From a bacterium (GTDB lineage Bacteria; UBA9089; CG2-30-40-21), in NCBI GenBank assembly GCA_018814245.1, contig JAHIZN010000215.1:1-36554 (forward strand): a stretch of DNA of 36,554 nt. Direction: 5' to 3'. The position numbers and the translations under genes were made by a program. Below, one piece after another: positions 3,416-33,695 of the stretch (its first letter is position 1; every line of letters starts with the position of its first letter). A model generated the notes under the pieces. It was not told where the DNA came from, ran no database searches, and saw only the letters and a list, made by a program, of their open reading frames with translations.

Positions 3416-3829
3416 TTATCTTAACCAACAAAATGGTATCTTCCCTTCTCTTTCAATGCTTTCTAATTCATGATGATCCGTGGATATTACTGTAGCAAAC
3501 CTTTGTTCTGCCAATGCCAGGACAAAGCAATCTGCATAAGAAACCCTAAAGGATGTTTTGTATTTACCTACTATCTCAATAAAAGGAATGTCCAATTCCC
3601 AAATTATGGTTATAGGAAGTTGTTGTATGTCATCCCAAATTTCTTGAGCCTCATTTTTATCTTTTCGTAATGTATCATAATACGCCTCTCCTACATTTAC
3701 TGCATGCATAAAAAATCTATTGTACTTATCACTAAAAAGTGTTTTAACCTTTTCACATCCTTCCTCCTGTCGAAGGTAAACAAGTAATCCACATGTATCC
3801 ATAACATAATTAACTATCTCTCTTGCCAT
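3416..3829 (-). CDS. PIN-domain ribonuclease (VapC-like toxin)
   Basis: 137 aa with acidic residues in the pattern expected for PIN: N-terminal VMDTCG, GEAYY, YADCF and C-terminal STDHH. SD GAGGAA. It overlaps the upstream gene by 16 nt. Confidence 0.8.
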   Translation of the reverse strand: MAREIVNYVMDTCGLLVYLRQEEGCEKVKTLFSDKYNRFFMHAVNVGEAYYDTLRKDKNEAQEIWDDIQQLPITIIWELDIPFIEIVGKYKTSFRVSYADCFVLALAEQRFATVISTDHHELESIEREGKIPFCWLR

Positions 3830-4119
3830 TTCTGTTCCTCTAACTCAATTTCAATCTGCTTTTGTCTGGCAAATTCTTCACTACTGCTAAGTCTGTCTTT
3901 GTATTTTCCACACAATGCATGAATTGCCTTTTCTTTGTAGTAATACTCAAAATCTTTTGACACATCTTCAAAGCAATTAATAGAAATGGCACAAATATCA
4001 ACATTATTTTGATCTACCCATAACCTAAACTGCCCTTTTCTCACAGGCTTTATTGGGATAATATCATAAATTTCTGCCTTTAGGCTGTTTTTTTCTGCAC
4101 TATATGAAATAGTACTCAT
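3814..4119 (-). CDS. Hypothetical 101-aa protein, possible antitoxin or adaptor for the PIN protein
   Basis: Strong SD GGGAGGG. Its ATG overlaps the TIR gene stop (ATGA). The C-terminal charged helix (SSSEEFARQKQIEIELEEQ) resembles the tails of VapB-type antitoxins. The N-terminal 60 aa are not recognisable. Confidence 0.6.
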   Translation of the reverse strand: MSTISYSAEKNSLKAEIYDIIPIKPVRKGQFRLWVDQNNVDICAISINCFEDVSKDFEYYYKEKAIHALCGKYKDRLSSSEEFARQKQIEIELEEQKWQER

Positions 4120-4595
4120 TTTCCCTCCCTCTGTGAAGAAAGTAAAAGGAAAAAAGCAAGGATTCCTCCTGCAACAAGTAAGGCTTTTTTCTGTTCTTGC
4201 TTCTTCAATTTTAACAATTTAACAAAGCCTGCTGTTTTAGATAATGCATCTTCATATTGATGAGGATCATATTCAATATATTCTTTGCCTTGTAATGCTG
4301 CCAAGTCGTTTATATTAACCCCTTTTTCTACAATTGGAATAAGTGTCCTGCCAGCCTTTAATGCACATTCTATTTCCTGATTGACCCAATTAGATCTTAC
4401 TCCATTTTGTGTTAATAAAGCAACAATACAGTCAGATTTTTCAATTTTCTCAAATACTTTTTTCCTGACAGGCTCTCCTGGAGTAAGATACCATTCTGCA
4501 ACAAATACCTTTATTTCAAATTTTGTAAGTATGTGAGCAAGTGCAATGACTAATCCCCGGTCTTGAGTACTATGACTTATAAACACACTATACAT
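4116..4595 (-). CDS. TIR-domain protein with a C-terminal transmembrane anchor
   Basis: The N-terminus SVFISHSTQD, the CIVALLTQNGVRSNWVNQEIECAL segment and GRTLIPIV match the bacterial TIR_2 pattern (FISYS ... S.WV..E), including the putative catalytic Glu. The C-terminus ALLVAGGILAFFLLLSS is a single TM helix. SD AGGAGG. Confidence 0.8.
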   Translation of the reverse strand: MYSVFISHSTQDRGLVIALAHILTKFEIKVFVAEWYLTPGEPVRKKVFEKIEKSDCIVALLTQNGVRSNWVNQEIECALKAGRTLIPIVEKGVNINDLAALQGKEYIEYDPHQYEDALSKTAGFVKLLKLKKQEQKKALLVAGGILAFFLLLSSQREGK

Positions 4596-5910: not shown

Positions 5911-6050
5911 GTCAAAGCCTCCATGTCTTGATGTAAATAAAAAATCTCACGCGGAGACGCGGAGACCGCGGAGATAATTGACACAGACAAACAAAATATA
6001 AGAGATAGGGTTATTGCTCAATAACCTGTGGATTTTGCAAGCCACGAAGA

Positions 6051-6098
6051 TTGCCATGTTGTAGAGACGCAAAATTTTGCGTCTCTACAACATGGCAA
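6051..6098. repeat. Perfect 48-bp palindrome, family B core GTAGAGACGCAAAATTTTGCGTCTCTAC
   Basis: ttgccatgttgtagagacgcaaaa / ttttgcgtctctacaacatggcaa are perfectly complementary 24-nt arms. Other family B copies are at 9041-9068, 15982-16017 and 25526-25553. Confidence 0.95.
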
Positions 6099-6182
6099 TT
6101 GCAACGAATTAGATTGCTTTATCACCTTCAATCTCATGGATATGTGAATAGTTATCAAGGATTATACATTCAATCCCTATTC

Positions 6183-6392
6183 CTATCCTTCTCCTCTTTT
6201 CTCCGCGTCTCCGCGTGCAATATCTTCGCTCTCTGTCTTATGAATTATTTCCCATCGCTTTTTCATGTTATCATTAAAACACTTAGAAAAATAAGGACAT
6301 TCAAAACAGCATGTTCGGGGCATTCCCTGTTCACCCAATATCCATTTTTTTACACAATTAGTATGTTTTTCGCATTGTTCACAACAAAGCAT
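6183..6392 (-). CDS. Small cysteine-rich protein with a duplicated CC-x2-C-x5-C motif
   Basis: 69 aa. Strong SD AAGGAG lies 6 nt upstream of the ATG. It contains CCEQCEKHTNC and CCFECPYFSKC, 8 Cys in total. The C-terminal tail is encoded by a ccgcggagac-type repeat. Confidence 0.55.
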   Translation of the reverse strand: MLCCEQCEKHTNCVKKWILGEQGMPRTCCFECPYFSKCFNDNMKKRWEIIHKTESEDIARGDAEKRGEG

Positions 6393-6553: not shown

Positions 6554-6695
6554 GTAGGGGCAGACCTATGTGTCTGCCCCTGTAACACTGCCGCACAAAA
6601 CAACCTGCTCACCAAGCAGGAAAGGATGTAGGAGCAACAGACACATGGGTCTGCCTTTCCCCTGCTATTGGGCAGACACATAGGTCTGCCCCTAC
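6554..6695. repeat. Family E element with inverted GTAGGGGCAGACCTATGTGTCTGCCCC termini
   Basis: 6554-6580 and 6670-6695 are reverse complements of each other, and each is internally palindromic (GGGGCAGAC/GTCTGCCCC). The right copy contains the TAG stop of the GH57 gene. Confidence 0.9.
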
Positions 6696-8317
6696 AGCCT
6701 TATTGGCTTTTTAATCCCTTCAGGAATGCTTAACCCAAGAATCTTATATATCCCTTCCAGATACCCTCTGAACAGGGAATCAAAAATATCTGCGTTTGGG
6801 GAATAGTGTTTATCCCCATACCACCAGAACCAATCCGATCCTTCAGCAATATAAATATATTCCCATGCAGTCTTAGTTTTGTCTGATTGACCATGTTCTT
6901 TTTCAAAGTCTACCAGAGCCTCTCTTGCCTCGTATAGATGATCCCATGCCCTGTTTTCTTCCTTGCCGCCTATCCAAATTTGGAAGTTAGAATTTATCCA
7001 TGAGCCTGGATGAATCTCTGTAAGTGTTTCTTGCGGGGGATTTTCCTTAAGATATTCACTTACAGTAACACATCTTATTTTTTCATCATGAGAGAGACAG
7101 GTATAGAGATATTCTAAAAATTCCCAGCCATTTTTTGAATAGTATTCCCACGCATTTTCCCCATCCATGGCAATACACACAAGATTGTTTCTTTTTTTGG
7201 GCAGCATGTCATGGATATGATGAAGTCTGGTGATAAAATCAGAAACCGCATCATAGGTATTCCATTTTCCGTAGGTAAAACCAATAGTATCAGAAAGTGC
7301 TCTATCCCGAAAGACTACACTTACTTGTTTTCCGTCTATGTTGAGATTATACGGCTTATACAGCAGATGGGCACTATACCTGTCCACACCAAGTGTGTGA
7401 TACAGAATCCATTCATCTGTTGCCAGCCATTTAATACCATTATCCGCCACCATAGGAATAATATCGTTGCAAACACTCCCTTCTGATGGCCACATCCCTC
7501 TGGGGTTGCAGCCAAAGTAATGTTGGTAGCAATCTACTGCCGACTTTATCTGCATTCTTGCATCCTCAGGGGCAGAAAATCTTTTTGTTGGCAAGGTAAC
7601 ATTCGGGTCTGACTGTCGGGCTAATTCTGTATTGCATAATAATGGAAGTATGGGGTGATAGTATGGGGTTACTGAAACCTCAATCTGTCCGGTATCTTGC
7701 ATCCTTTTATATTTAGGCAGTATCCATGAGATAACCTCTCTTTGTTTATCTATAAGTTTTTGTTTTTCTTCTTCAGTAAAATTCTTTTGTTTTTTGATAA
7801 GGTTTGCTAAGAATGAATCTCTTCCTTGAAATTGCGGATCAAACCATGCAATATTAAACCAGACCTGAAGGTCAAGAAAATCCTGAGTACTAAACCTTTT
7901 AACAGCCGTAAGCAGTTCATCTCTTGAAACAGTTATACCTCTTTTTTCTATAAGCTCTCTGTATCGAGGGAAGACCTTGATCATATTATCCCAGTTTGCA
8001 GAAAAAAATTCTTGCAGCAGAAAGGTCTTTTGTCCATGACTTAAGTCTTTAGCCGGGATCATGGTATACGCCAAATACCTGTCACTTGCACCTTTCGCAT
8101 ACTCATCCAATTGAATCATCAGGGATGGAACCATGTTAAATGTTTGATGGATTGATGGATATGCATCTAAGGCAGAGATCATATCATAGTAATCTTTAAT
8201 CCCATGCAGCCTTACCCATGGAAGAGAGTATTCTGAGGTAGAAATATCCTTGTAAAATGGTTGATGCATGTGCCACAAGAAGGCAACATGTAATGGGTTA
8301 CTCATAGATTTTTCCAC
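6692..8317 (-). CDS. Glycoside hydrolase family 57 (alpha-amylase / branching-enzyme type)
   Basis: N-terminal WHMHQPFYKD signature of GH57. 541 aa. Confidence 0.8.
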   Translation of the reverse strand: MEKSMSNPLHVAFLWHMHQPFYKDISTSEYSLPWVRLHGIKDYYDMISALDAYPSIHQTFNMVPSLMIQLDEYAKGASDRYLAYTMIPAKDLSHGQKTFLLQEFFSANWDNMIKVFPRYRELIEKRGITVSRDELLTAVKRFSTQDFLDLQVWFNIAWFDPQFQGRDSFLANLIKKQKNFTEEEKQKLIDKQREVISWILPKYKRMQDTGQIEVSVTPYYHPILPLLCNTELARQSDPNVTLPTKRFSAPEDARMQIKSAVDCYQHYFGCNPRGMWPSEGSVCNDIIPMVADNGIKWLATDEWILYHTLGVDRYSAHLLYKPYNLNIDGKQVSVVFRDRALSDTIGFTYGKWNTYDAVSDFITRLHHIHDMLPKKRNNLVCIAMDGENAWEYYSKNGWEFLEYLYTCLSHDEKIRCVTVSEYLKENPPQETLTEIHPGSWINSNFQIWIGGKEENRAWDHLYEAREALVDFEKEHGQSDKTKTAWEYIYIAEGSDWFWWYGDKHYSPNADIFDSLFRGYLEGIYKILGLSIPEGIKKPIRL

Positions 8318-8987: not shown

Positions 8988-9144
8988 GTAATTACTCAAT
9001 AACCTATGGATTTTGTAAGTCATGAAGACTACCCTTATAAGTAGAGACGCAATATTTTGCGTCTCTACTCCCACAATTGCAACGAGTTAGATTGCCTCAG
9101 CACCTTCAACCTTCTGGAATTGCCACAGGATATTGAGCAATTAC
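8988..9144. repeat. Composite nested repeat: family G shell (GTAATTRCTCAATAWCCTRTGG) enclosing a family B hairpin
   Basis: Left end gtaattactcaataacctatgg and right end ccacaggatattgagcaattac are inverted. The interior shares about 130 bp with 6011-6140, including the gtagagacgcaa..ttgcgtctctac hairpin and caattgcaacgaRttagattgc. Confidence 0.85.
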
Positions 9145-9324: not shown

Positions 9325-9996
9325 TCAAATATCTTCATGTTTTTCCCAATACCTTTTTACTTCCTCAAAATGCTTGATTCTACCAGCAATCTTTTCAATC
9401 TCTTTTGGATAAAATTCAGCAAGTATAGCACAGAGTCGAAGCATCCATGACTTTCTGGTTTGTTTGTCATTGATTGATATTCTGTTAGAATTGGCGATTT
9501 GAATTTGCCCCCAACCCAATGCGCCAATTGTCAGACATTGCCAATCAAGATGTTCTATTGGAACAAAATGACAAGATTTTGCCTTGAGTTTTTCTTTTTC
9601 AATTTTGTATGCAACAATCAGAAGTATAAAGTAATTACTATCATCTTCATAGAACCTTGTGAGTCGCTCAACAGATGTTAGGTTTGGCATATTGAATGCT
9701 GTATCAAGATTGTGTGTCTTATTATCAACCACATAATAAAAACCATCGTTATCTGTAAATGCGAAATCCGCCATAGATCGACGAGCAAATGACGAATTGT
9801 ATTCTTTAAGAATTTCTTTGGGAAGAAGTTCATTAAATTTTGATTCGAGCAATTGCTGAATAGCATCACCAACAGCACGAGGACTATTAATGGTTCTGGC
9901 ACTCATCAAACTATGTTCTTCATTGATAAGTGTCAAAACATTTCTTTCTATATCTGACTGAATATGCCCAGAGAATAATTTACTTCTATTTGTCAT
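9325..9996 (-). CDS. Putative type II restriction endonuclease (PD-(D/E)XK-like)
   Basis: It overlaps the stop of the upstream DNA methyltransferase by 11 nt. It contains a candidate catalytic motif MADFAF...YVVDNK (D...D-x-K). No closer family assignment is possible by eye. Confidence 0.6.
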   Translation of the reverse strand: MTNRSKLFSGHIQSDIERNVLTLINEEHSLMSARTINSPRAVGDAIQQLLESKFNELLPKEILKEYNSSFARRSMADFAFTDNDGFYYVVDNKTHNLDTAFNMPNLTSVERLTRFYEDDSNYFILLIVAYKIEKEKLKAKSCHFVPIEHLDWQCLTIGALGWGQIQIANSNRISINDKQTRKSWMLRLCAILAEFYPKEIEKIAGRIKHFEEVKRYWEKHEDI

Positions 9997-10993
9997 TTGC
10001 TACCTCAAAAAGTGAAAAAAGGTTTAGGGGCTGTATGTTCTTACTTAATCTTTTTTTCCCATTCTGATAATTCAGTGAATTCCTTTCCCAAAACACACCA
10101 TCAGAATAACCCTGTATGGATTTGTCACAGTCAGCCCCATCAAGTCGGTTTTGTGCCCAACAACAATATTCTGTGTTGACTTCAACACCACAATAATGGC
10201 GATTAAGTTTTTTAGCAACAACCGAAGTAGTACCAGAACCTAAAAACGGATCAAACACAGTCCCTTTTTCAGGACAACTAGCCAAGATTAATTTGGCAAT
10301 TAGTTTTTCGGGTTTTTGCGTAGGGTGGTCTGTGTTTTCAGGCATAGACCAATATGGTATAGTAATATCATCCCAAAAGTTAGATGGGTGTGTTAATCTA
10401 AAATTACCTTCTTCCGTTTCTTCCCAGTCTTTTGGCTCTCCATTTTCTTTGTATGGAGCAATTACCTTTCGTTTCATTTTGACTGCTTCTACATCAAAAA
10501 AGTAATTATTACTAATTGTGCCAAACCAAATGTCTTCAGTGCAGTTTTTCCAGTTTGACTTTGCACCACGCCCTTTTTCTCTTTGCCAAATAATTCTGTT
10601 TTGGACAACAAGATACTTGCTTACAATACGATATAGTGCGGATGTACTTCTCCAATCACCGCAAATATATACTGACCCTGTTGGTTTCAAGAGTCGCATC
10701 AATTCAGGAAACCAGCTATCGAGGTATTTGAAATAACTGTCATCATCGATTTTATTAAACTTAAAACCGTTAAACTCTTTGTCAAGATTATATGGTGGGT
10801 CAATTACCATTAAGTCAACAAAGTTTGACGGGAAATATTTAATTATCTCAAATAAATTATCATTAAAAGTTTTATCTATAACTTCATTAATAGACAATAC
10901 ATTTGTAGCATGTGACAAATATTTTGAAAGAAGAACTGCTTCATTCTTTGTTATAGTAATCGTACGATTTCTTGGTGCTCTTTCTTTTTCCAT
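9986..10993 (-). CDS. Beta-class DNA methyltransferase (N6-adenine or N4-cytosine)
   Basis: Motif IV VIDPPYN precedes motif I FDPFLGSGTTSVVA, which is the beta-class permutation. Confidence 0.85.
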   Translation of the reverse strand: MEKERAPRNRTITITKNEAVLLSKYLSHATNVLSINEVIDKTFNDNLFEIIKYFPSNFVDLMVIDPPYNLDKEFNGFKFNKIDDDSYFKYLDSWFPELMRLLKPTGSVYICGDWRSTSALYRIVSKYLVVQNRIIWQREKGRGAKSNWKNCTEDIWFGTISNNYFFDVEAVKMKRKVIAPYKENGEPKDWEETEEGNFRLTHPSNFWDDITIPYWSMPENTDHPTQKPEKLIAKLILASCPEKGTVFDPFLGSGTTSVVAKKLNRHYCGVEVNTEYCCWAQNRLDGADCDKSIQGYSDGVFWERNSLNYQNGKKRLSKNIQPLNLFSLFEVANDK

Positions 10994-11072
10994 AACATAT
11001 TATTACCTTTAACCGAACTGTTATTCGCCATATTATTTGGGATGTTTTTCTGAGGCAGTATACCCGATTACA

Positions 11073-11208
11073 AGAGAAAGAACCACAAAGGGTGTAAATA
11101 TCTCAGAGAGAAAAATAATTGCGAGCGATAACAAGATAATTGCAAATGATAAGAGCCGTTGACAAGGGTTTATCTCTTAGGATTTACACCCTTTGTGATT
11201 CTTTCTCT
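11073..11208. mobile_element. MITE-like element, family A (TIR AGAGAAAGARCCACAAAGGGTGTAAAT), copy 1
   Basis: 136 bp with inverted repeats of about 27 bp at 11073-11099 and 11182-11208. Contains the internal gagccgttgacaaggg motif. Confidence 0.9.
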
Positions 11209-12452: not shown

Positions 12453-12678
12453 CTGTGCAATTAGAAATCACCACTTGTTTGCAGAGAAAGAGCCACAAAG
12501 GGTGTAAACCCATCGATGCACCCTTGTCAGGCTCTTCTTATTATGTAATTACCTTATTATTGTTGCAATATTTCCCCGTAGATTACACCCTTTGTGGCTC
12601 TTTCTCTTCTCTATTGTGAGAAACTGGATATGGTATCCACACAAAACAAAAGTAAAGTCGTAAATTCTAATTGCACAG
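12453..12678. mobile_element. Composite nested MITE: family I shell (CTGTGCAATTAGAA) carrying family A copy 2 (12483-12607), flanked by an 11-bp direct repeat
   Basis: TIRs are ctgtgcaattagaa (12453-12466) and ttctaattgcacag (12665-12678). The direct repeat GTTAACTTGTT is at 12440-12450 and 12682-12692. The family A TIRs are at 12483-12508 and 12582-12607. Confidence 0.85.
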
Positions 12679-15869: not shown

Positions 15870-16090
15870 CGACCTGTGCAATTAGAAACAGGGAATATAT
15901 CCGCAGATTTCGCAGATTATCGCAGATTAAAAAAATTGCAAAACAAATTCAACGGCTACGGTACATGGTGAAATCGTAGAGGCATGTAGAGACGCAAAAA
16001 TTTGCGTCTCTACATGCTTTCCCCCCTCATCTCATCTGTAATCTGTGAAATCTGCGTAATCTGCGGATTAAATCCTAATTGCACAGCTCG
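15870..16090. repeat. 221-bp concentric nested palindrome: family I shell > family D (GCAGATT repeats) > family B hairpin
   Basis: The outer arms are cgacctgtgcaattag and ctaattgcacagctcg. Inside them are gcagatttcgcagattatcgcagatt and aatctgtgaaatctgcgtaatctgc. The centre is gcatgtagagacgcaaaaatttgcgtctctacatgc. AAATTTAT is present on both outer flanks. Confidence 0.9.
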
Positions 16091-17855: not shown

Positions 17856-20800
17856 TTATAATTCCAGCATCCTCAAATTTTGCTCTATACTTTTTCTCTT
17901 TGCCTCAAGCAATTCCCCTTGTTCCTTAGCCTTATCCACTACCTCCTGTGGTGCCTTATCAACGAAGCCTGGATTGCTCAACTTAGCCTGAACACCACTC
18001 AACGCTTGTGTTATCTCTTCCAATTGCTTTTTAAGCCGTAATCGCTCCTTCTCCAGATCAATCAATCCCTCTAATGGGATGTAAATCTCCATGTCTTTTG
18101 CCACAGCCACGGCTGATGCGTGTGGTTTCTCTGCTTCTGGGTCAAAGACAATTGTTTCTATATTGCCGAGTCGTTTGATATACTCGATGCATGATTTAAG
18201 CACATCAGCTGTCTCATCCAAAGAATGTTTGACCATGATTATCGGCAATCTCATTTTTGGCAAAATATTCATCATGGAGCGAATATTGCGGATAGCACTA
18301 ATTATCTCCATAACCAATTCCATATCCTCAATGGCTTTTGGATTAATTAATCCTGGCTTTGGCCATTTAGAGAGCATGATCGTTGACTCAGAGGGCAAAC
18401 GCGGCAGCCTTTGCCACAACTCTTCGGTAATAAACGGCATAAATGGATGAAGCAGCTTCAGGATAGACTCAAAGGTTGTTGCCAATAGATATTGCACTGT
18501 TTTCTTTGTCTCATCATCCTGCCTCAACCTCGGCTTAACCAGCTCAAGATACCAATCACAATATTCATGCCAGACAAAGTGATAGATGGTAGCAGATGCT
18601 TCTGCAAAGTTGAAAGCCTCGAGTCCCATAGTAACCTGTTCAATTGTCTGATTAAGCCGCGAAACGATCCACTTATCAGCTATCTCTTTTTGATTATCAG
18701 GGCAGACACACCTTGAATCGGGAATCTCGAATCGCGAATCGTGAATCTGAAGAAAACCTGGCTCCTGCTTATCAGGGCAGACACAGGGGTCTGCCCCTAC
18801 AGGGGCAGGTTTGGAATCTGCCCCTACAGGGGCAGGTTTGGAATCTGCCCCTACAAGGGCAGGTTTGGAACCTGCCCCTACTGTGCCTCTTGCATCCTGC
18901 CTCCTATCTTCTCTGTATTCTGAATTCTGACTCCTGAATTCTGACTCCTGAATTCTCTGTTCCCCTGCCTCATCCCCATCCAGATTCATAAGGATAAACC
19001 TTGCTGCATTCCAGAGTTTATTGCAAAAGTGCTTATATCCCTCTATCCGTTCCTCAGCAAGCAGAATGTCTCGCCCCTGTACGGCCATAATGGCTAAGGT
19101 AAACCGAAGGGCATCGGTACCATAATCATCAATAACATGAAGCGGGTCAATAACATTGCCCTTTGATTTACTCATCTTTTGACCCTCGGCATCCCGAATC
19201 AGGGCATGGATGTAAACCTTGTGAAAGGGGATATCCCTTTGAAATTTCAAGCCCATCATGATCATTCTGGCAACCCAGAAAAAGATGATGTCAAAACCGG
19301 TAGAAAGGACGCTGGTAGGATAAAATTGCTTGAGGTCAGGGGTATCGTCAGGCCAGCCAAGCGTGGAAAATGGCCAAAGGGCAGAGGAAAACCATGTATC
19401 AAGCACATCCTCATCCTGTTTTAGCTCACCACCACAGGCAGTGCAGGCACAAGGGTCTTCCCTTTCCACCAATACCTTGCCGCACTGCTGGCAATACCAG
19501 ACAGGTATACGGTGTCCCCACCATATTTGTCTGGAGATACACCAATCCTTGATATTCCTCATCCATTCAAAGTATGTTTTTTCCCAGCTTTTAGGGATAA
19601 ATTCTACCCTGCCATCCTCTACTGCCTTGATTGCCTCCTCAGCCAAATTATTCATCCGAACAAACCATTGAGGGGAAAGATATGGCTCAACAATAGTATG
19701 GCATCGATAGCAATGTCCTATAGATAAGGCATGTTCTTCAATCTTTTCCACAAGCCCTTGCCCTTGCAGGTCTTGTATCAGATTCTTGCGGCACTCATAC
19801 CTGTCCTGTCCCTGATAGTGTCCAGCGTTTTCATTCATGGTGGCATCAGGGTTCAGGATATTTATTTGCGGTAAATTATGTCTCTTGCCAATCTCAAAAT
19901 CGTTGGGATCATGGGATGGGGTAACCTTTACCGCACCAGTACCAAATTCAGGCTCAACAAAAGAATCAGCAATAATAGGTATCCTGCGATTTAATACAGG
20001 CAATATCACATATTTTCCAATCAATCTGCGATACCTTTCGTCCTCCGGGTTTACTGCAACTGCGGTATCACCAAGCATGGTTTCCGGGCGGGTGGTAGCT
20101 ACAACAATGTAGGATTTTGGATTTGTTGTATCTGCGGTGATATTTTCTTCATCTTGTAGCTGCAGGGTGACAGGGGTGCTACCCACTTGTTCATGGATTT
20201 CATCTTCTTGCTCCTCAAGAGCATTTGGGCAGACACATAGGTCTGCCCCTACTACGGGATACCTGAGATAATACAGATGTCCATTTATATCCTTATGCTC
20301 TGCCTCAATATCTGAGAGTGCGGTATGGCATCTGGGACACCAGTTAACGATATAGTTATCTCGATAGATAAGCCCTTCCTCGTAGAGTCTGACAAAAACC
20401 TCTCTAACTGCCCTTGACAATCCATCATCCATGGTAAATCTTGTTTTTGACCAATCGCAGGATGAGCCAAGCCGTTTTAGCTGATGAATAATTATATCAC
20501 CATACTGTTTTTTCCATTCCCATACCCGTTTGATAAACTCTTCGCGTCCTAAATCGTTTCGGGTTAATCCCTGCTTTTTCAGCTCTCGTTCTACTACATT
20601 CTGGGTAGCAATGCCGGCATGGTCTGTACCCGGTACCCACAGGACATTTATCCCTTGCATCCGTTTCCATCGAGCCAGAATATCCTGAATAGTATTATTC
20701 AGGGCATGTCCCATATGGAGTGAGCCGGTTATATTTGGCGGTGGAATAACCATGGAAAAGCACGGCTTATCATCCCACTCGCTTGGCAGAAAACAATTAT

Positions 20801-20876
20801 TCTCTTCCCAGTACTTGTACCATTTTTCTTCTACATCTTGCGGTTCATATGCCTTTGGAATATCCAGTATGTTCAT
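17856..20876 (-). CDS. valS: Valine--tRNA ligase carrying two in-frame repeat-derived insertions
   Basis: Contains PPPNITGSLHMGHAL (HIGH), QKMSKSKGN (KMSKS), VATTRPETMLGD and a C-terminal coiled coil. The start is set at the ATG at 20876 (MNILDIPKAYEP, SD GGGAG). The track start at 20963 would overlap the upstream toxin gene. Confidence 0.9.
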   Translation of the reverse strand: MNILDIPKAYEPQDVEEKWYKYWEENNCFLPSEWDDKPCFSMVIPPPNITGSLHMGHALNNTIQDILARWKRMQGINVLWVPGTDHAGIATQNVVERELKKQGLTRNDLGREEFIKRVWEWKKQYGDIIIHQLKRLGSSCDWSKTRFTMDDGLSRAVREVFVRLYEEGLIYRDNYIVNWCPRCHTALSDIEAEHKDINGHLYYLRYPVVGADLCVCPNALEEQEDEIHEQVGSTPVTLQLQDEENITADTTNPKSYIVVATTRPETMLGDTAVAVNPEDERYRRLIGKYVILPVLNRRIPIIADSFVEPEFGTGAVKVTPSHDPNDFEIGKRHNLPQINILNPDATMNENAGHYQGQDRYECRKNLIQDLQGQGLVEKIEEHALSIGHCYRCHTIVEPYLSPQWFVRMNNLAEEAIKAVEDGRVEFIPKSWEKTYFEWMRNIKDWCISRQIWWGHRIPVWYCQQCGKVLVEREDPCACTACGGELKQDEDVLDTWFSSALWPFSTLGWPDDTPDLKQFYPTSVLSTGFDIIFFWVARMIMMGLKFQRDIPFHKVYIHALIRDAEGQKMSKSKGNVIDPLHVIDDYGTDALRFTLAIMAVQGRDILLAEERIEGYKHFCNKLWNAARFILMNLDGDEAGEQRIQESEFRSQNSEYREDRRQDARGTVGAGSKPALVGADSKPAPVGADSKPAPVGADPCVCPDKQEPGFLQIHDSRFEIPDSRCVCPDNQKEIADKWIVSRLNQTIEQVTMGLEAFNFAEASATIYHFVWHEYCDWYLELVKPRLRQDDETKKTVQYLLATTFESILKLLHPFMPFITEELWQRLPRLPSESTIMLSKWPKPGLINPKAIEDMELVMEIISAIRNIRSMMNILPKMRLPIIMVKHSLDETADVLKSCIEYIKRLGNIETIVFDPEAEKPHASAVAVAKDMEIYIPLEGLIDLEKERLRLKKQLEEITQALSGVQAKLSNPGFVDKAPQEVVDKAKEQGELLEAKRKSIEQNLRMLEL
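18791..18883. repeat. 27-bp tandem repeat (3.4 copies) inside valS
   Basis: The unit ctgcccctacaggggcaggtttggaat occurs at 18791, 18818 and 18845, with a partial copy at 18872. It encodes the in-frame 9-aa repeats GADSKPAPV. Confidence 0.95.
20227..20252. repeat. Family E repeat copy inside the valS coding sequence
   Basis: gggcagacacataggtctgcccctac is identical over 26 nt to the intergenic copy at 6670-6695. It is translated as part of VVGADLCVCPN. Confidence 0.95.
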
Positions 20877-20901
20877 TGTGTTACTCCCGCTTAAGTTAAA
20901 A

Positions 20902-22173
<1,272 letters not shown>

Positions 22174-23337: not shown

Positions 23338-23561
23338 ATTTTTTGATCTGTGCAGTTAAGATTTATCTCGCAGATTACGCAGATTTCACAGATTAAAGAA
23401 CAAATCGCTTATACCTTAAGCTTTCTGCTACAACGCTTAGAAGAAGCTTATGTTTAATTATGCAATAGAATCTTTCTTGTTCATCTCCATTGATACTTCT
23501 TAATTTGTGAAATCTGCGTAATTTGCGTAATCTGCGAGATATTCCCTATTGTTATCCTGTC

Positions 23562-25504: not shown

Positions 25505-25525
25505 TTCTCCATTATTCAGATTTTA

Positions 25526-25553
25526 GTAGAGACGCAAGATATTGTGTCTCTAC
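25526..25553. repeat. Family B hairpin copy
   Basis: gtagagacgcaagatattgtgtctctac, with one G-U-type mismatch relative to the other copies. Confidence 0.85.
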
Positions 25554-25650
25554 GGATAACGGATATTTGTTGTTATTCGTTAAATTCGCTTTCTCTCAAT
25601 CAAATCTGCGTTATCCGTAAAATCTGCGTACTAAAATTGCAGCCCATCCC

Positions 25651-27807: not shown

Positions 27808-28188
27808 ATGGCAAAAAAATATGAAGAATGGTTAAAGCAAGCTGATTATGATATAAATACAGCAGAGTATATGTTTGATGGCGGTAGATATTTCTATGCT
27901 GTTTTTATGTGTCATCTTTCTATAGAAAAAGCTCTCAAAGGGCTCTACTTAGAGAGGCTAAAAGAGATGTCACCAAAGGTCCACAATCTCATCTATCTAT
28001 TGAATAAATCTGGTGTTAAACCTCCAGAGACCATTGGAAGATTTCTTGTAACACTTAATGAAGCCAGCGTCGTAACAAGATATCCTGACAACATAGAGAA
28101 ACTACAGAGGGATTATACAAAGGATGTTGTGATGGATATAGTAAGCAAAAGCAAAGAGGTTTTAAGATGGATAAAAACGCAGTTTTGA
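27808..28188 (+). CDS. HEPN-domain protein
   Basis: AVFMCHLSIEKALKGLYL...HNLIYLL...VTRYPD matches the PF05168-type HEPN pattern. It overlaps the downstream MNT gene by 22 nt. Confidence 0.8.
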   Translation: MAKKYEEWLKQADYDINTAEYMFDGGRYFYAVFMCHLSIEKALKGLYLERLKEMSPKVHNLIYLLNKSGVKPPETIGRFLVTLNEASVVTRYPDNIEKLQRDYTKDVVMDIVSKSKEVLRWIKTQF

Positions 28189-28484
28189 AGATTATCTCTC
28201 GCTTTCAGAAAACCCTTGAGTCGAAAGGCATAAGAATAAACAAAACTATACTTTTTGGTTCTTGTGCGATGGGATTACAAAAGGAAGAGAGCGATATTGA
28301 TATAGTTGTTATATCAGAGGATTTCAAGAATAAGGGCTATTGGGAGAGGATAGCGATACTCTCAGATGTTATTTATGAAATCTTTGAGCCAATAGAGGCT
28401 GTGGCTATGACGAAAGAAGAATGGGAAAAAGGCGATTCTTTTATTGTTAATTATGCTAAAAACGGAGAGGTTGTTTATGGATAA
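28167..28484 (+). CDS. Minimal nucleotidyltransferase (MNT) domain protein
   Basis: The FGSCAMGLQKEESDIDIVV motif (GS...D.D) matches pol-beta-superfamily nucleotidyltransferases. Confidence 0.8.
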   Translation: MDKNAVLKIISRFQKTLESKGIRINKTILFGSCAMGLQKEESDIDIVVISEDFKNKGYWERIAILSDVIYEIFEPIEAVAMTKEEWEKGDSFIVNYAKNGEVVYG

Positions 28485-28487
28485 CAG

Positions 28488-28742
28488 GTAATTGCTCAAT
28501 ATCCTGTGGCAATTCAATGAGATTAAACTGCTCAGACAGCAAGAATACAGGAGACAGGAGTCAGAATTCAGAATACAGGGAAAGAGCCACAAAGGGTGTA
28601 AATTCTAAGAAATGCACCCTTGTCTTGTTATCGTTACAATTATTTTCCCTAAGATTATACACCCTTTGTGGCTCTTTCCCTTGTAAGCGTTTACCTATTG
28701 TTAATTGTGGCTTGCAAAATCCACAGGTTATTGAGCAATTAC
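28488..28742. repeat. Composite nested repeat: family G shell enclosing family F (GAATACAGGAGTCAGAATTCAG) and family A copy 3 (28578-28680)
   Basis: The outer ends are gtaattgctcaatatcctgtgg and ccacaggttattgagcaattac. Family F is at 28541-28579. The family A TIRs are at 28578-28603 and 28654-28680. Confidence 0.85.
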
Positions 28743-31234: not shown

Positions 31235-31561
31235 GGAAGAGATTCTCGCAAAGGTCGCAAAGTTTTCGCAGAGTCCGCAGAAACAAGGCTAAAGAAATGA
31301 GAAAAATGATGAAAATCCTGTAACTATTCAGATGTGTAATAAAGGAGAAAAGGGGAAAAAAAGAGAAGTGGGGAAGACTAATAGGAGTCAGAATTCAAGA
31401 GTCAGAATATTCCTAATTCTGTCCTTTTGTATTCTCCCCTGTTCTCCCCTTTCTCCATTTCTCCTTATCTTACACATTTCTTTTCTTTCTTTGTGTTCTT
31501 TGCGAATCCTTTGCGTCTTTGCGAGAATCTTGAGAATTGCTAAGAGAAAGGAGGATTAGCC

Positions 31562-32998
31562 TTGCGTGGAATAAATCTAAGCCCATCAGGCTGGCGGGCA
31601 ATAATCGCTAAGGAATTTACCTTTGATAATATATTGTTTCTTGCTCAGGCAATTGCTGATTATCTTAAACAGCAGGGGCAAACTCAAGGTGTGGTCATAG
31701 GATATGACTGCCGATTTCTCTCTGATGAGTTTGCCAAATATGCGGCAGAGGTTTTGTCAGGCAATCAAATAACCGTATTTTTTGTCCCTGTTCCAACGCC
31801 TACACCAGTGATTGCTTATGAAATAGTCAGGAGACGGGCATCGGCTGGAATAATGATTACTGCCAGCCATAACCCTTCCATGTATAATGGCTTAAAGTTT
31901 AATGCCCCTCATGGCGGCTCTGACTCAAAAGAGGCAACAGCGTGGATTACTCATCAGGCAAATACCCTGCCAAAGAGTGTGATTAAAAGGATAACATATC
32001 AACAAGGGGTTGCGTCTGGTGCTATCCTACCCATTGATCCTGCGAAAAAATACATTGAACACATAAAAACCCTTGTCAATATGGAGCTAATCAAAGAGGC
32101 AGGGTTATCTGTGGCAATTGACCTCATGTTTGGGTGTGCCATAGAATATCTTGGCAATATTTTGACTGAGGCTGGATGCAGGATTGTATCCCTGCACACC
32201 AATCGTGACCCCTTGTTTGGCGGAAAGCCTCCGGATCCTAATGAGGATTCATTGCAGGAGCTTTCACAATTAGTAGTATCATCTGACTCCTGTCTTGGTC
32301 TTGCCACTGATGGGGATGCTGATCGATTTGGTGTAATTGACAGCAATGGCGAGTATGTCTCATCAAATCAGATGATTGCCCTTTTGGTTTATTATATGCT
32401 TAAAACCCGTGGGCAAAAGGGTGGTGTTGTCAAAACAATCACAACCACCCATCTTGTAGACGCTATTGCCAAAAAATATAATGTTTCTTGTTGCCAGACC
32501 AATGTTGGCTTTAGAAATGTTGCCGAGATAATAAGAAAGGAAAACATGCTCATTGGTGGAGAGGAATCGGGAGGACTAACCATTGCCGGGCATATCCCGG
32601 AGAAAGATGGCATCCTTGGATGCCTGTTGACCACAGAGATGCTGGCATCTAACCAAAAGAGTATTAGGGATATTCTTCAGGGATTGTATGAAGAATTTGG
32701 GTACTTTTTCACCAAACGCATGGATATTTGCCTTTCAAAAGAAGAAGTGGATGCCTTGTCAAAAACACTACAGCATCATCCACCAAAAAGGTTTGGTGAT
32801 TTGCAGGTAACAAGAATCGAAAACAACAAATTCTTTATGGAGGATGGAAGCTGGATATTAATCAGACAATCTGCTACAGAGCCATTAATCCGAATATACG
32901 CAGAAGCAGCAAGCAAGGAGAAACTCCATAAGCTTATTGAAACAGGCATGGAGTTTATACGCAAGAAAGGAGAAAGAAAAGATGACCAAAACCAGTGA
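31562..32998 (+). CDS. Phosphoglucomutase/phosphomannomutase (canonical motifs)
   Basis: Contains TASHNPSMYNGLK, ATDGDADRFGV and GGEESGG. TTG start. Confidence 0.85.
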   Translation: MRGINLSPSGWRAIIAKEFTFDNILFLAQAIADYLKQQGQTQGVVIGYDCRFLSDEFAKYAAEVLSGNQITVFFVPVPTPTPVIAYEIVRRRASAGIMITASHNPSMYNGLKFNAPHGGSDSKEATAWITHQANTLPKSVIKRITYQQGVASGAILPIDPAKKYIEHIKTLVNMELIKEAGLSVAIDLMFGCAIEYLGNILTEAGCRIVSLHTNRDPLFGGKPPDPNEDSLQELSQLVVSSDSCLGLATDGDADRFGVIDSNGEYVSSNQMIALLVYYMLKTRGQKGGVVKTITTTHLVDAIAKKYNVSCCQTNVGFRNVAEIIRKENMLIGGEESGGLTIAGHIPEKDGILGCLLTTEMLASNQKSIRDILQGLYEEFGYFFTKRMDICLSKEEVDALSKTLQHHPPKRFGDLQVTRIENNKFFMEDGSWILIRQSATEPLIRIYAEAASKEKLHKLIETGMEFIRKKGERKDDQNQ

Positions 32999-33332
32999 AC
33001 TTATTGATCAAGCAGAAGCAGCCCTTGAAGCAGCACGGACAAGCATTGAGTTAAAGAACTATGAATGGGCTTTTGGACATGCCAGAAATTCTATAGAATT
33101 TGGACTAAAGGCGATTATAGAATATTATGGGAAGAGCTTTACCAAGACAAACATTGCCAGCCTTATTCATGAATTAAAAAATATAACCCAAATACCTGAT
33201 GATGTTGTTGTAGCAGCAAAGTCTGCTGCAGAGATGGAAAAACATGCGAGCAATAACGAGCGATTTTGCAGGATGTCTATTACCTATGCAGATATTATCA
33301 TGAAATGGGTGCTTCAAACCACTGGGTATTAA
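32982..33332 (+). CDS. HEPN-like small helical protein (solo)
   Basis: AFGHARNSIEFGLKAIIEYYG...LIHEL resembles the HEPN helix pattern of the gene at 27808. The start is taken at MTKTSE, preceded by GGAGAAAGAAAAG. It overlaps the PGM stop by 17 nt. Confidence 0.5.
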   Translation: MTKTSELIDQAEAALEAARTSIELKNYEWAFGHARNSIEFGLKAIIEYYGKSFTKTNIASLIHELKNITQIPDDVVVAAKSAAEMEKHASNNERFCRMSITYADIIMKWVLQTTGY

Positions 33333-33567
33333 AAACAGCTTGAACTGTTTAATCTTAGAGCCGCAACATATTCCATCCTCGTCCAGTTGAAAGACAAGAG
33401 GGCAACAGTGAGACAGAGGGCAGGCACGGGGGACTGTTCCTACGGATTAAATATCCTCCGCTGGCGGGGTCTGAGCATGTTCCACATTTTTTATTAGACA
33501 CAGAGAAAAAGTAACTGTTTAGGGTATAATTGATGCCTTGTTAATCAGTAGTTATTGCAGCGAAAAG

Positions 33568-33695
33568 GAAAAGAACCACAAAGGGTGTAAATTTAGGGAA
33601 AATAATTGCAGCGAAACAGGAGTAATTGTAAGCAAGAAGAGCCGTTGACAAGGATTGTATTTCTTAGGATTTACACCCTTTGTGGCTCTTTCTCT
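33568..33695. mobile_element. MITE-like element, family A, copy 4
   Basis: TIRs are at 33568-33593 and 33669-33695. The internal gagccgttgacaagg motif is as in copy 1. An outer TATTGCAGCGAAA / TTCCGTTGCAATA shell is present. Confidence 0.9.

Follow-up and report, generated by a model that had tools for sequence, protein, structure and literature searches.

Here, we analysed a 36,554-nt stretch of DNA (contig JAHIZN010000215.1 of GenBank assembly GCA_018814245.1, positions 1 to 36,554 of the forward strand), referred to in its entirety as the window, which is gene-dense, has a G+C content of approximately 40% and originates from an uncultured, candidate-phylum groundwater bacterium. Its minus strand carries valS, the gene coding for valyl-tRNA synthetase (ValRS). 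We could confirm that valS contains a real linker insertion built from repeats (site 2), and we found a second expanded loop (site 1), absent from an earlier preliminary description of this DNA, in the beta-hairpin with which the editing (CP1) region of the enzyme begins. The gene and both sites are located as follows:

17856-20963, minus strand: valS open reading frame (ORF), 1035 codons
18681-18980, minus strand: expanded linker (site 2), 100 codons between the anchors RFILMNL and ADKWIVS; about 15-17 in orthologues
20103-20255, minus strand: second expanded loop (site 1), residues 208-258, 51 aa compared to a median of 9; about 42 extra residues

The expanded linker and its repeat content

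The likely start of valS is the methionine at codon 30 of the ORF (M30, position 20876), where orthologues begin too, giving a coding sequence (CDS) of 1006 aa at 17856-20876 on the minus strand; the public annotation P0001 is an identical protein with the same start. Upstream of M30 the ORF is open for another 29 codons (20876-20963), which overlap the end of the upstream PIN-like gene at 20902-21255. When compared with all PDB sequences, the product matched ValRS of T. thermophilus best (1GAX, E = 1.3e-250, in three aligned pieces), and Pfam assigned tRNA-synt_1 to residues 18-604, Anticodon_1 to residues 734-879 and, in addition, Val_tRNA-synt_C (1006-aa numbering). The closest ValRS relatives share 83-90% protein identity and come from groundwater metagenome-assembled genomes (MAGs), two of which are labelled Candidatus Desantisbacteria, the lineage to which the genome of the window probably belongs as well. 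Since tRNA-synt_1 ends at residue 604 and Anticodon_1 starts at residue 734, the segment at site 2 is the linker just before the anticodon-binding domain, which is the position predicted beforehand and also the one seen in the AlphaFold2 model described below.

Query residues 669-759 have no counterpart in 1GAX, where they would fall between residues 600 and 604, and the same holds at site 1 for query residues 241-284 between residues 207 and 209. Among the 119 closest database ValRS, the linker between RFILMNL and ADKWIVS has a median length of 17 aa (range 8-44), the next longest being 44 and 36 aa. It mostly measures 13-20 aa, with a maximum of 44 aa, in 67 diverse metagenomic ValRS (relatives of 36-44% identity among the matches listed in a metagenome scan with the C-terminal domain as query), and 14-15 aa in the close relatives P0005, P0006 and P0008. 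The surplus of about 85 residues (100 versus about 17) claimed in the preliminary description is thus borne out, and neither the PDB match nor any of the 119 closest or the 67 diverse ValRS carries a homologous segment of this length.

Read in the order of the coding strand, the linker consists of the parts given below; the last two lines add the hairpin at site 1 and the block that is absent from valS of the nearest relative, P0002 (L003; 89.4% nucleotide identity over 2682 aligned nt).

18957-18980, minus strand: residual original linker, encoding DGDEAGEQ
18912-18956, minus strand: heptanucleotide array F, units CAGAATT/CAGGAGT, about 6.4 copies (Tandem Repeats Finder period 7 and 14), encoding RIQESEFRSQNSEYR
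18882-18911, minus strand: 30-nt spacer, encoding EDRRQDARGT; first 16 nt common to P0002
18801-18881, minus strand: three head-to-tail 27-nt GTAG hairpin units, GTAGGGGCAGGTTCCAAACCTGCCCTT, then GTAGGGGCAGATTCCAAACCTGCCCCT twice
18775-18800, minus strand: fourth GTAG hairpin, GTAGGGGCAGACCCCTGTGTCTGCCC, encoding VGADPCVCP; same family as intergenic 6556-6583 and 6668-6695
18748-18774, minus strand: spacer
18715-18747, minus strand: heptanucleotide array B, GATTCNC, about 4.7 units (Tandem Repeats Finder period 7), part of IHDSRFEIPDS
18694-18714, minus strand: half hairpin, AAGGTGTGTCTGCCCTGATAA, encoding RCVCPDN
20225-20255, minus strand: site-1 GTAG hairpin, GTAGTAGGGGCAGACCTATGTGTCTGCCCAA, encoding VVGADLCVCP; starts the loop
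18689-18895, minus strand: block absent from P0002 valS, about 207 nt (69 codons), borders uncertain by a few nt

As seven is not a multiple of three, the units of array F are read in all three frames, which yields the peptide given above. The three 27-nt units follow the general form GTAGGGGCAG(G/A)TTCCAAACCTGCCC(TT/CT), are 96-100% identical to each other and encode VGAGSKPAL once and VGADSKPAP twice; Tandem Repeats Finder reports them as a period-27 array at 18790-18881 with 96% matches. A hairpin dimer in valS of the distant relative P0106 is of one family with the first unit, and this family is very abundant in metagenomes, with a word depth of up to about 50,000 in RNA run X6. Within the half hairpin, 17 nt (TGTGTCTGCCCTGATAA, coding strand; 18694-18710) are identical to 18769-18785. 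The hairpin units measure 26-28 nt with stems of 8-9 bp and fold as DNA with -8.4 to -10.3 kcal/mol (z = -3.7 to -4.3). All five intragenic units of valS (four at site 2, one at site 1) begin with GTAG, a tail that stays unpaired in all but one of their five folds. Folded as RNA, the entire segment reaches -115 kcal/mol (z = -5.45 versus shuffles). The peptides quoted in the preliminary description were recovered, i.e. QESEFRSQNSEYRE, one VGAGSKPAL and two VGADSKPAP, and CVCPD twice; tryptic peptides expected from the segment, if translated, would include GTVGAGSKPALVGADSKPAPVGADSKPAPVGADPCVCPDK and IQESEFR.

The same description had derived the extra DNA from the repeat families that fill the intergenic gaps, and this similarity survives formal comparison. 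The stretch 18693-18965 has 263 11-mer positions, and for 35 of them the 11-mer is found again between genes of the window, approximately 19 times the mean of control coding DNA (1023 coding windows of 273 nt; mean 1.8, standard deviation 2.2, maximum 23), and the control maximum falls in a doubtful ORF lying inside a repeat region. The segment shares an exact 24-nt match with intergenic 28555-28578 (CAGGAGTCAGAATTCAGAATACAG), units of array F are also found between genes at 941-979, 28555-28578 and 31383-31397, and the hairpin core matches the intergenic copies at 6556-6583 and 6668-6695. At site 1, 20225-20252 matches 6668-6695 in 28 of 28 positions. Between its genes, the window contains about three copies of the hairpin core, plus two that diverge from it, and a second GTAG hairpin is present four times. 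valS is the only CDS in the window with GTAG hairpins or arrays reported by Tandem Repeats Finder, all others being intergenic. The word depth in metagenomes over the repeat parts is tens to thousands of times that of the flanks, a figure that sums over all organisms in a sample.

Comparison with P0002 gives a view on how the segment grew. At the site of array F, the six to seven units of the window compare with four in this relative (CAGGAGT, CAGGAGT, CAGAAGT and CAGAAG). The block of about 207 nt, with the four hairpins, array B and the half hairpin in it, is missing there. The shorter array and the missing block indicate growth in steps, and, judged from this alignment, the insertion is an accretion in at least three steps rather than the result of one event. 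Three of the four hairpins at site 2 look like a local tandem duplication of 27 nt.

To view both sites in other lineages, the valS DNA of seven close relatives was read codon by codon. Site 1 is occupied by about ten GATCCNC heptamers in P0003 (read as RSTIHDPQSPIPDPRSTIPNPQS), by a shorter version thereof in P0008, by three copies of GGTGCTACC in P0006, by a LQDEENIT-DTT piece common to valS of the window in P0007 and by an insert with a period of 7 aa in P0055. In P0106, whose ValRS is 61% identical, the same site holds a head-to-head dimer of the sister GTAG hairpin, GTAGGGGCAGGTTCTAAACCTGCCC ... GGGCAGGTTTAGAACCTGCCCCTAC, the two units of which are inverted, lie about 20 nt apart and are read as VGAGSKPAQ...RAGLEPAPT. 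Site 2 is filled with three copies of GCACAGAT (period 8) in P0004 and with six copies of GCAGGGA (period 7) followed by a small hairpin in P0022. A third hot spot follows the motif ELWQRLP, where P0008 has a hairpin of the CCCCTT...AAGGGG type. Taken from these alignments, there is clear evidence that the same ValRS loops were colonised by repeats repeatedly and, as it appears, independently in several lineages.

Reading frame, expression and predicted structure

The full segment is present in three assemblies, namely the window, NCBI MAG GCA_043825255.1 and a contig of JGI metagenome 3300014656, which differ by six to seven single-nucleotide polymorphisms (SNPs) in valS, all of them synonymous and two located inside the segment. 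Logan contigs from seven DNA runs belonging to six studies (2016-2025; groundwater, biofilm and unspecified metagenome) span the two junctions, and none of these contigs showed an empty site. The X4 contig (18500-18832) and the X7 contig (18841-19200) each bridge from unique sequence into the repeats. The comparison of strains proposed in the preliminary description hence finds the segment in three of three assemblies and its junctions in seven DNA runs, and finds the nearest relative P0002 without the block of about 207 nt.

The claim that the reading frame runs intact through the insertion was confirmed by a six-frame check, in which each of the five alternative frames ran into one to six stops and the valS frame alone stayed open across both insertions. 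Among shuffled sequences, only 0.4% are free of stops for the 300-nt segment of site 2, and 5% for site 1. The ratio of nonsynonymous to synonymous substitution rates (dN/dS) in comparison with P0002 is 0.08-0.09 upstream and 0.18 downstream of the segment, and 0.11-0.17 downstream of it for four other relatives. These low downstream values indicate that the frame past the segment is under purifying selection.

Metatranscriptome contigs cover 18927-19400, i.e. from the upstream CDS into array F, and 18855-18937, and a contig from a second run (18814-18900) spans the 27-nt units specific to valS. An RNA joint that skips the segment was not seen in these contigs. Rfam reported three tRNAs and no intron family in the window, and Pfam found synthetase domains and no Hint/intein domain in ValRS.

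An AlphaFold2 model, computed with an alignment of 120 sequences, reached a mean predicted local distance difference test score (pLDDT) of 84 and a predicted template modelling score of 0.81; its best structural match is again 1GAX, with a target-normalised TM-score (TMt) of 0.87. Values of pLDDT below 50 are confined to residues 212-253 and 651-724, which are the two insertions. In the model, the segment of site 2 is a low-confidence loop between the confident helices 608-631 and 732-753, with array F (residues 636-659) drawn as a low-confidence helix, and site 1 is the turn of a beta-hairpin (strands 192-208 and 256-261) leading into the editing region. Both loops are probably floppy.

Related repeat families and other features of the window

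Di Nocera, De Gregorio and Rocco (2013, BMC Genomics 14:522, PMC3733652) described repetitive extragenic palindromes (REPs) tagged with GTAG or CGTC in more than 80 species. According to this source, a GTAG REP is a stem-loop of 20-40 bp with an unpaired GTAG at one end, and such elements occur as singletons, head-to-tail groups and head-to-head dimers. They are mostly intergenic, some lie wholly inside ORFs, sometimes two per ORF, where clusters encode 43-82 aa, with tRNA synthetase genes among the hosts, namely in X. oryzae, E. litoralis and S. alaskensis (PMC3733652). The units in valS have this build, i.e. 20-40 bp with a stem of 6-13 bp and an unpaired terminal GTAG, and by structural definition they are GTAG REPs. 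The likeness extends to the copies inside ORFs and to the choice of tRNA synthetase genes as hosts (PMC3733652). In contrast, the hairpins of valS are interleaved with heptamer arrays, the linker of 100 aa is longer than the clusters reported in that study, the host is an uncultured candidate-phylum bacterium, and the same two ValRS loops are hit in several lineages. The comparison of the valS hairpin with the 24 GTAG families of PMC3733652 is one of layout.

The preliminary description had compared the insertion to the Rickettsia palindromic elements (RPEs) and had called it MITE-like, in reference to miniature inverted-repeat transposable elements. RPEs are palindromic repeats found in frame in conserved Rickettsia genes (Ogata et al. 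2000, Science 290:347, as summarised in PMC10969869 and PMC3733652). Their peptides sit at positions judged compatible with the fold, and RPE-1 measures approximately 100-150 bp and is restricted to Rickettsia (PMC10969869, PMC3733652). RPE-4 and RPE-6 have been equated with intragenic repeats of R. conorii, the species with most intragenic CGTC-tagged repeats (PMC3733652). The analogy stands for the way of working, as valS likewise carries an in-frame palindromic insertion in a conserved gene at a fold-compatible site, and it fails for sequence family, unit size and host lineage, since the units of valS are GTAG-tagged, 26-27 nt long, combined with simple-sequence arrays and found in an unrelated lineage. 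The likening to MITEs has to be dropped: neither terminal inverted repeats nor, with borders blurred by divergence, a target-site duplication were found at the outer ends, and the units are REP-type hairpins and heptamer arrays. A true family bounded by terminal inverted repeats is present in four intergenic gaps of the window.

The STRR repeats of cyanobacteria are heptanucleotide tandem repeats. Long simple-sequence repeats with heptamer units are abundant in some bacterial genomes and are described as growing and shrinking by slippage (Mrazek et al. 2007, cited via PMC4679880). The arrays in valS are alike in that at least three head-to-tail 7-nt units are present (6.4 and 4.7 copies), prone to slippage and with copy numbers that differ between close relatives; they differ in their location, since such repeats are usually described as intergenic, while in valS three consecutive units are read in all three frames and form a pseudo-repeat of 7 aa within an essential enzyme. 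Compared to REPINs and their RAYTs (Bertels and Rainey 2011, PMC3116915), the inverted GTAG pair of P0106 has the REPIN layout, whereas the valS hairpins of the window are arranged head to tail and not as inverted pairs. Rfam contains no family for any of the repeats. When matched literally against literature text, the hairpin sequence retrieved only unrelated primer sequences, and a protein search with the 45-aa peptide encoded by the hairpins gave no match, the word index being ill-suited to short repetitive queries.

Outside the window, the hairpin core GTA-GGGGCAGACCNNTGTGTCTGCCC, present at 6556-6583, 6668-6695, 18775-18800 and 20225-20252, was found in at least 117 stretches of GTDB species genomes (L010-L126). 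As 21 core bases were specified in the search, about 0.3 chance matches are expected in the 596-Gb collection. The matches listed span many phyla, such as Cyanobacteria, Chloroflexota, Bacteroidota, Firmicutes, Desulfobacterota, Nitrospirota, Planctomycetota and Omnitrophota; one of the genomes is that of an isolate, Geosporobacter ferrireducens, and is complete. In 145 core copies from other genomes, the three preceding bases are almost always GTA, completing the GTAG head, and the flanks are unrelated. Sister hairpins with compensated stems (GGGCGAAC.../GGGCGCAC...) often occur near core copies. About one in six core copies (~17%) lies in a stretch without stops that reaches 60 codons or more to either side, and the reading is mostly VGADxCVCP or GQTHxSAPT. 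Short-period arrays stand beside the core in other phyla in 9% of cases upstream and 6% downstream, compared to 2% at control positions, a modest enrichment of about 4-fold.

Further repeats were observed between the genes of the window. The four copies of the second GTAG hairpin family, GTAGAGACGCAAAATTTTGCGTCTCTAC, lie between genes at 6060-6089, 9040-9069, 15985-16014 and 25525-25554, and those at 15985 and 6060 are flanked at a distance of approximately 70-110 nt by inverted arrays of 8-9-nt units (CGCAGATTA, ACGCGGAG). The pairs of inverted arrays are located as follows:

5939-5965 and 6200-6226: inverted array pair
15892-15918 and 16049-16075: inverted array pair
23364-23394 and 23511-23541: inverted array pair, enclosing no GTAG hairpin

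Inverted arrays and hairpin together form composite palindromic structures of about 180-290 nt (15892-16075 and 5939-6226), to which the order array-hairpins-array in valS is loosely alike. The MITE-like element bounded by terminal inverted repeats is about 105-135 nt long, with copies at 11072-11208, 12482-12607, 28576-28681 and 33565-33695; its terminal inverted repeats measure approximately 26 nt (AGAGAAAGARCCACAAAGGGTGTAAA / TTTACACCCTTTGTGGCTCTTTCTCT), and the copy at 28576 is directly preceded by heptamer units of the valS type (the 24-nt match given above).

Among the genes of the window, small ones of the defence or toxin-antitoxin type are dense (3416-4595, 20902-21554, 27808-28484, 32937-33332 and 9986-10993). 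This set comprises a PIN protein, a TIR-domain protein, a gene pair of DUF433 and PIN-like DUF5615 directly upstream of valS, a pair of HEPN protein and nucleotidyltransferase, another HEPN protein and an N6/N4 DNA methylase. The GH57 glycoside hydrolase at 6692-8317 (minus strand), in which 287 Pfam profile positions are matched over 420 residues, may hold extra segments.

Origin of the segment and its meaning

We consider it probable that selfish, slippage-prone repeat DNA accumulated stepwise in a permissive surface loop of an essential enzyme and is most likely translated as a tolerated, disordered loop. The source would be the two kinds of short repeats that appear to crowd the intergenic gaps, namely REP-type GTAG hairpins of 26-28 nt and tandem arrays of 7-9-nt units. 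A heptamer array may have entered the linker before the split from the nearest relative, and the copy number of array F would then have shifted by replication slippage. The GTAG hairpin cluster, the second heptamer array and the half hairpin, about 207 nt in all, would have been added later, with one 27-nt hairpin unit duplicating in tandem. Repeat DNA presumably enters or expands everywhere and is filtered by selection, such that in an essential gene only in-frame, stop-free additions persist, in loops that spare folding and tRNA binding. Such a filter would explain why the valS frame alone is open and why independent lineages are hit in the same two or three loops. The effect of the segment itself would be neutral or near-neutral. 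As to how the hairpins arrived, a RAYT-like tyrosine transposase may have moved them in the manner of REPs, or repair may have copied them from ectopic repeats, which would leave the same picture; the GTAG layout suggests, by analogy, REP-type mobilisation by a RAYT tyrosine transposase (PMC3116915, PMC3733652).

Several observations weigh against this explanation in one part or another. The RNA contigs do not cover 18550-18770, so the 3' junction is unseen in RNA; as this gap includes ordinary CDS, it points to low depth in that region. Metatranscriptomes can also contain DNA. Translation of the segment as part of ValRS, while most likely, is something we infer rather than read from protein data, and low pLDDT is no proof of disorder. 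An inverted-repeat scan of 18660-19000 found internal hairpins only and no terminal inverted repeats bounding the segment, and no target-site duplication was seen at the outer borders relative to P0002, borders that are blurred by 11% divergence. Neither RAYT/Y1_Tnp nor any other transposase is among the ORFs of the 36.5-kb window, which leaves the transposition step without support here. Neither in viral contigs nor elsewhere in the loci retrieved were the two identical 27-nt units found again, which makes these variants local products rather than dispersed copies. Of the original proposal that ValRS tolerates repeat insertions as peptide loops, the tolerance is supported by the open frame, purifying selection and structure, and the translation by inference.

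A different origin, which appears unlikely to us, is that no repeat transposed into valS and that proto-repeats already there gave rise to the whole segment through replication slippage and local duplication; ectopic gene conversion or templated repair would then account for its resemblance to the intergenic copies. Such an origin fits to the heptamer copy number that varies among close relatives, to the local tandem array of 27-nt units, two of which occur nowhere else in the data, to the 17-nt direct repeat that frames a 75-nt period inside the segment, and to the fact that target-site duplication, terminal inverted repeat and transposase were not seen. However, the site-1 hairpin reproduces an intergenic element at a distance of 13.5 kb in 28 of 28 positions, the hairpin core with its GTAG tail recurs in unrelated flanks across many phyla, and a dimer of the sister family sits in the distant valS of P0106; together, these three observations form a pattern of dispersed elements and not of repeated invention in place. 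It seems quite improbable that matters go further, with a pan-bacterial, horizontally spreading REP family that has a conserved mobilising enzyme, and with a preference of this machinery for DNA structure or sequence at both ValRS loops acting besides selection. But could the extra loops be of use to the cell? The three CVCP motifs might form a metal or redox site, the loops a docking surface, or the folded mRNA might slow translation or stabilise the message. The segment is indeed fixed in all samples seen, the SNPs inside it are synonymous between assemblies and its RNA folds far beyond shuffles (-115 kcal/mol, z = -5.45), but adaptive loops are nonetheless highly improbable: the content of the same sites is wholly different among close relatives, the nearest relative manages without the 207-nt block, the peptide is merely the sole open reading of generic repeats, two SNPs inside the segment are too few to show constraint, and AlphaFold2 predicts no fold there.

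It is extremely improbable that the segment is missing from the mature protein owing to removal from the mRNA, ribosome bypass (known from gene 60 of phage T4 and from mitochondrial 'byp' elements) or protein splicing. The very strong local RNA structure and the incomplete RNA coverage would agree with such a process. However, every insertion, be it in this valS or in those of its relatives, has a length divisible by three and lacks stops in no frame but that of valS, and as skipped elements need no open frame, this argues against removal or bypass; moreover, neither an Rfam intron family nor a Hint/intein domain was found, and the RNA contigs hold parts of the segment and no skipping joint. 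The chance that we are dealing with an assembly artefact or a decaying pseudogene is practically negligible. Repeats do break short-read assemblies, and the Logan contigs fragment inside the segment, but three independent assemblies with different SNPs agree, the X4 and X7 contigs bridge unique sequence into the repeats on both sides, and the ORF is intact over 1006 codons with dN/dS of 0.08-0.18. Intein, self-splicing intron, translational bypass, artefact and pseudogene were thus rejected on the evidence from Pfam, Rfam, reading frame, RNA, assemblies and dN/dS.

Returning to stepwise accumulation of repeat DNA in permissive loops, no new mechanism comes to light, as in-frame insertions of REPs, including those in tRNA synthetase genes, and of RPEs are already known. 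New are the combination with heptamer arrays, the linker of 100 aa, the candidate-phylum host and the repeated and, by all appearances, independent colonisation of ValRS loops. In valS of this bacterium, nature has run a clean experiment on the amount of unstructured sequence that can be borne by an essential class I aminoacyl-tRNA synthetase, and on its place: two ValRS loops take up 40-85 extra residues encoded by junk repeats, and in relatives the same loops are filled in many other ways. This can be used for mapping permissive sites of ValRS. For repeat-rich genomes of uncultured bacteria it is at the same time a warning, as protein lengths may be inflated, short-read assemblies may break within genes and unrelated proteins may show spurious similarity. 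Beyond that, it points to selfish repeats as elements that can seed new protein sequence.

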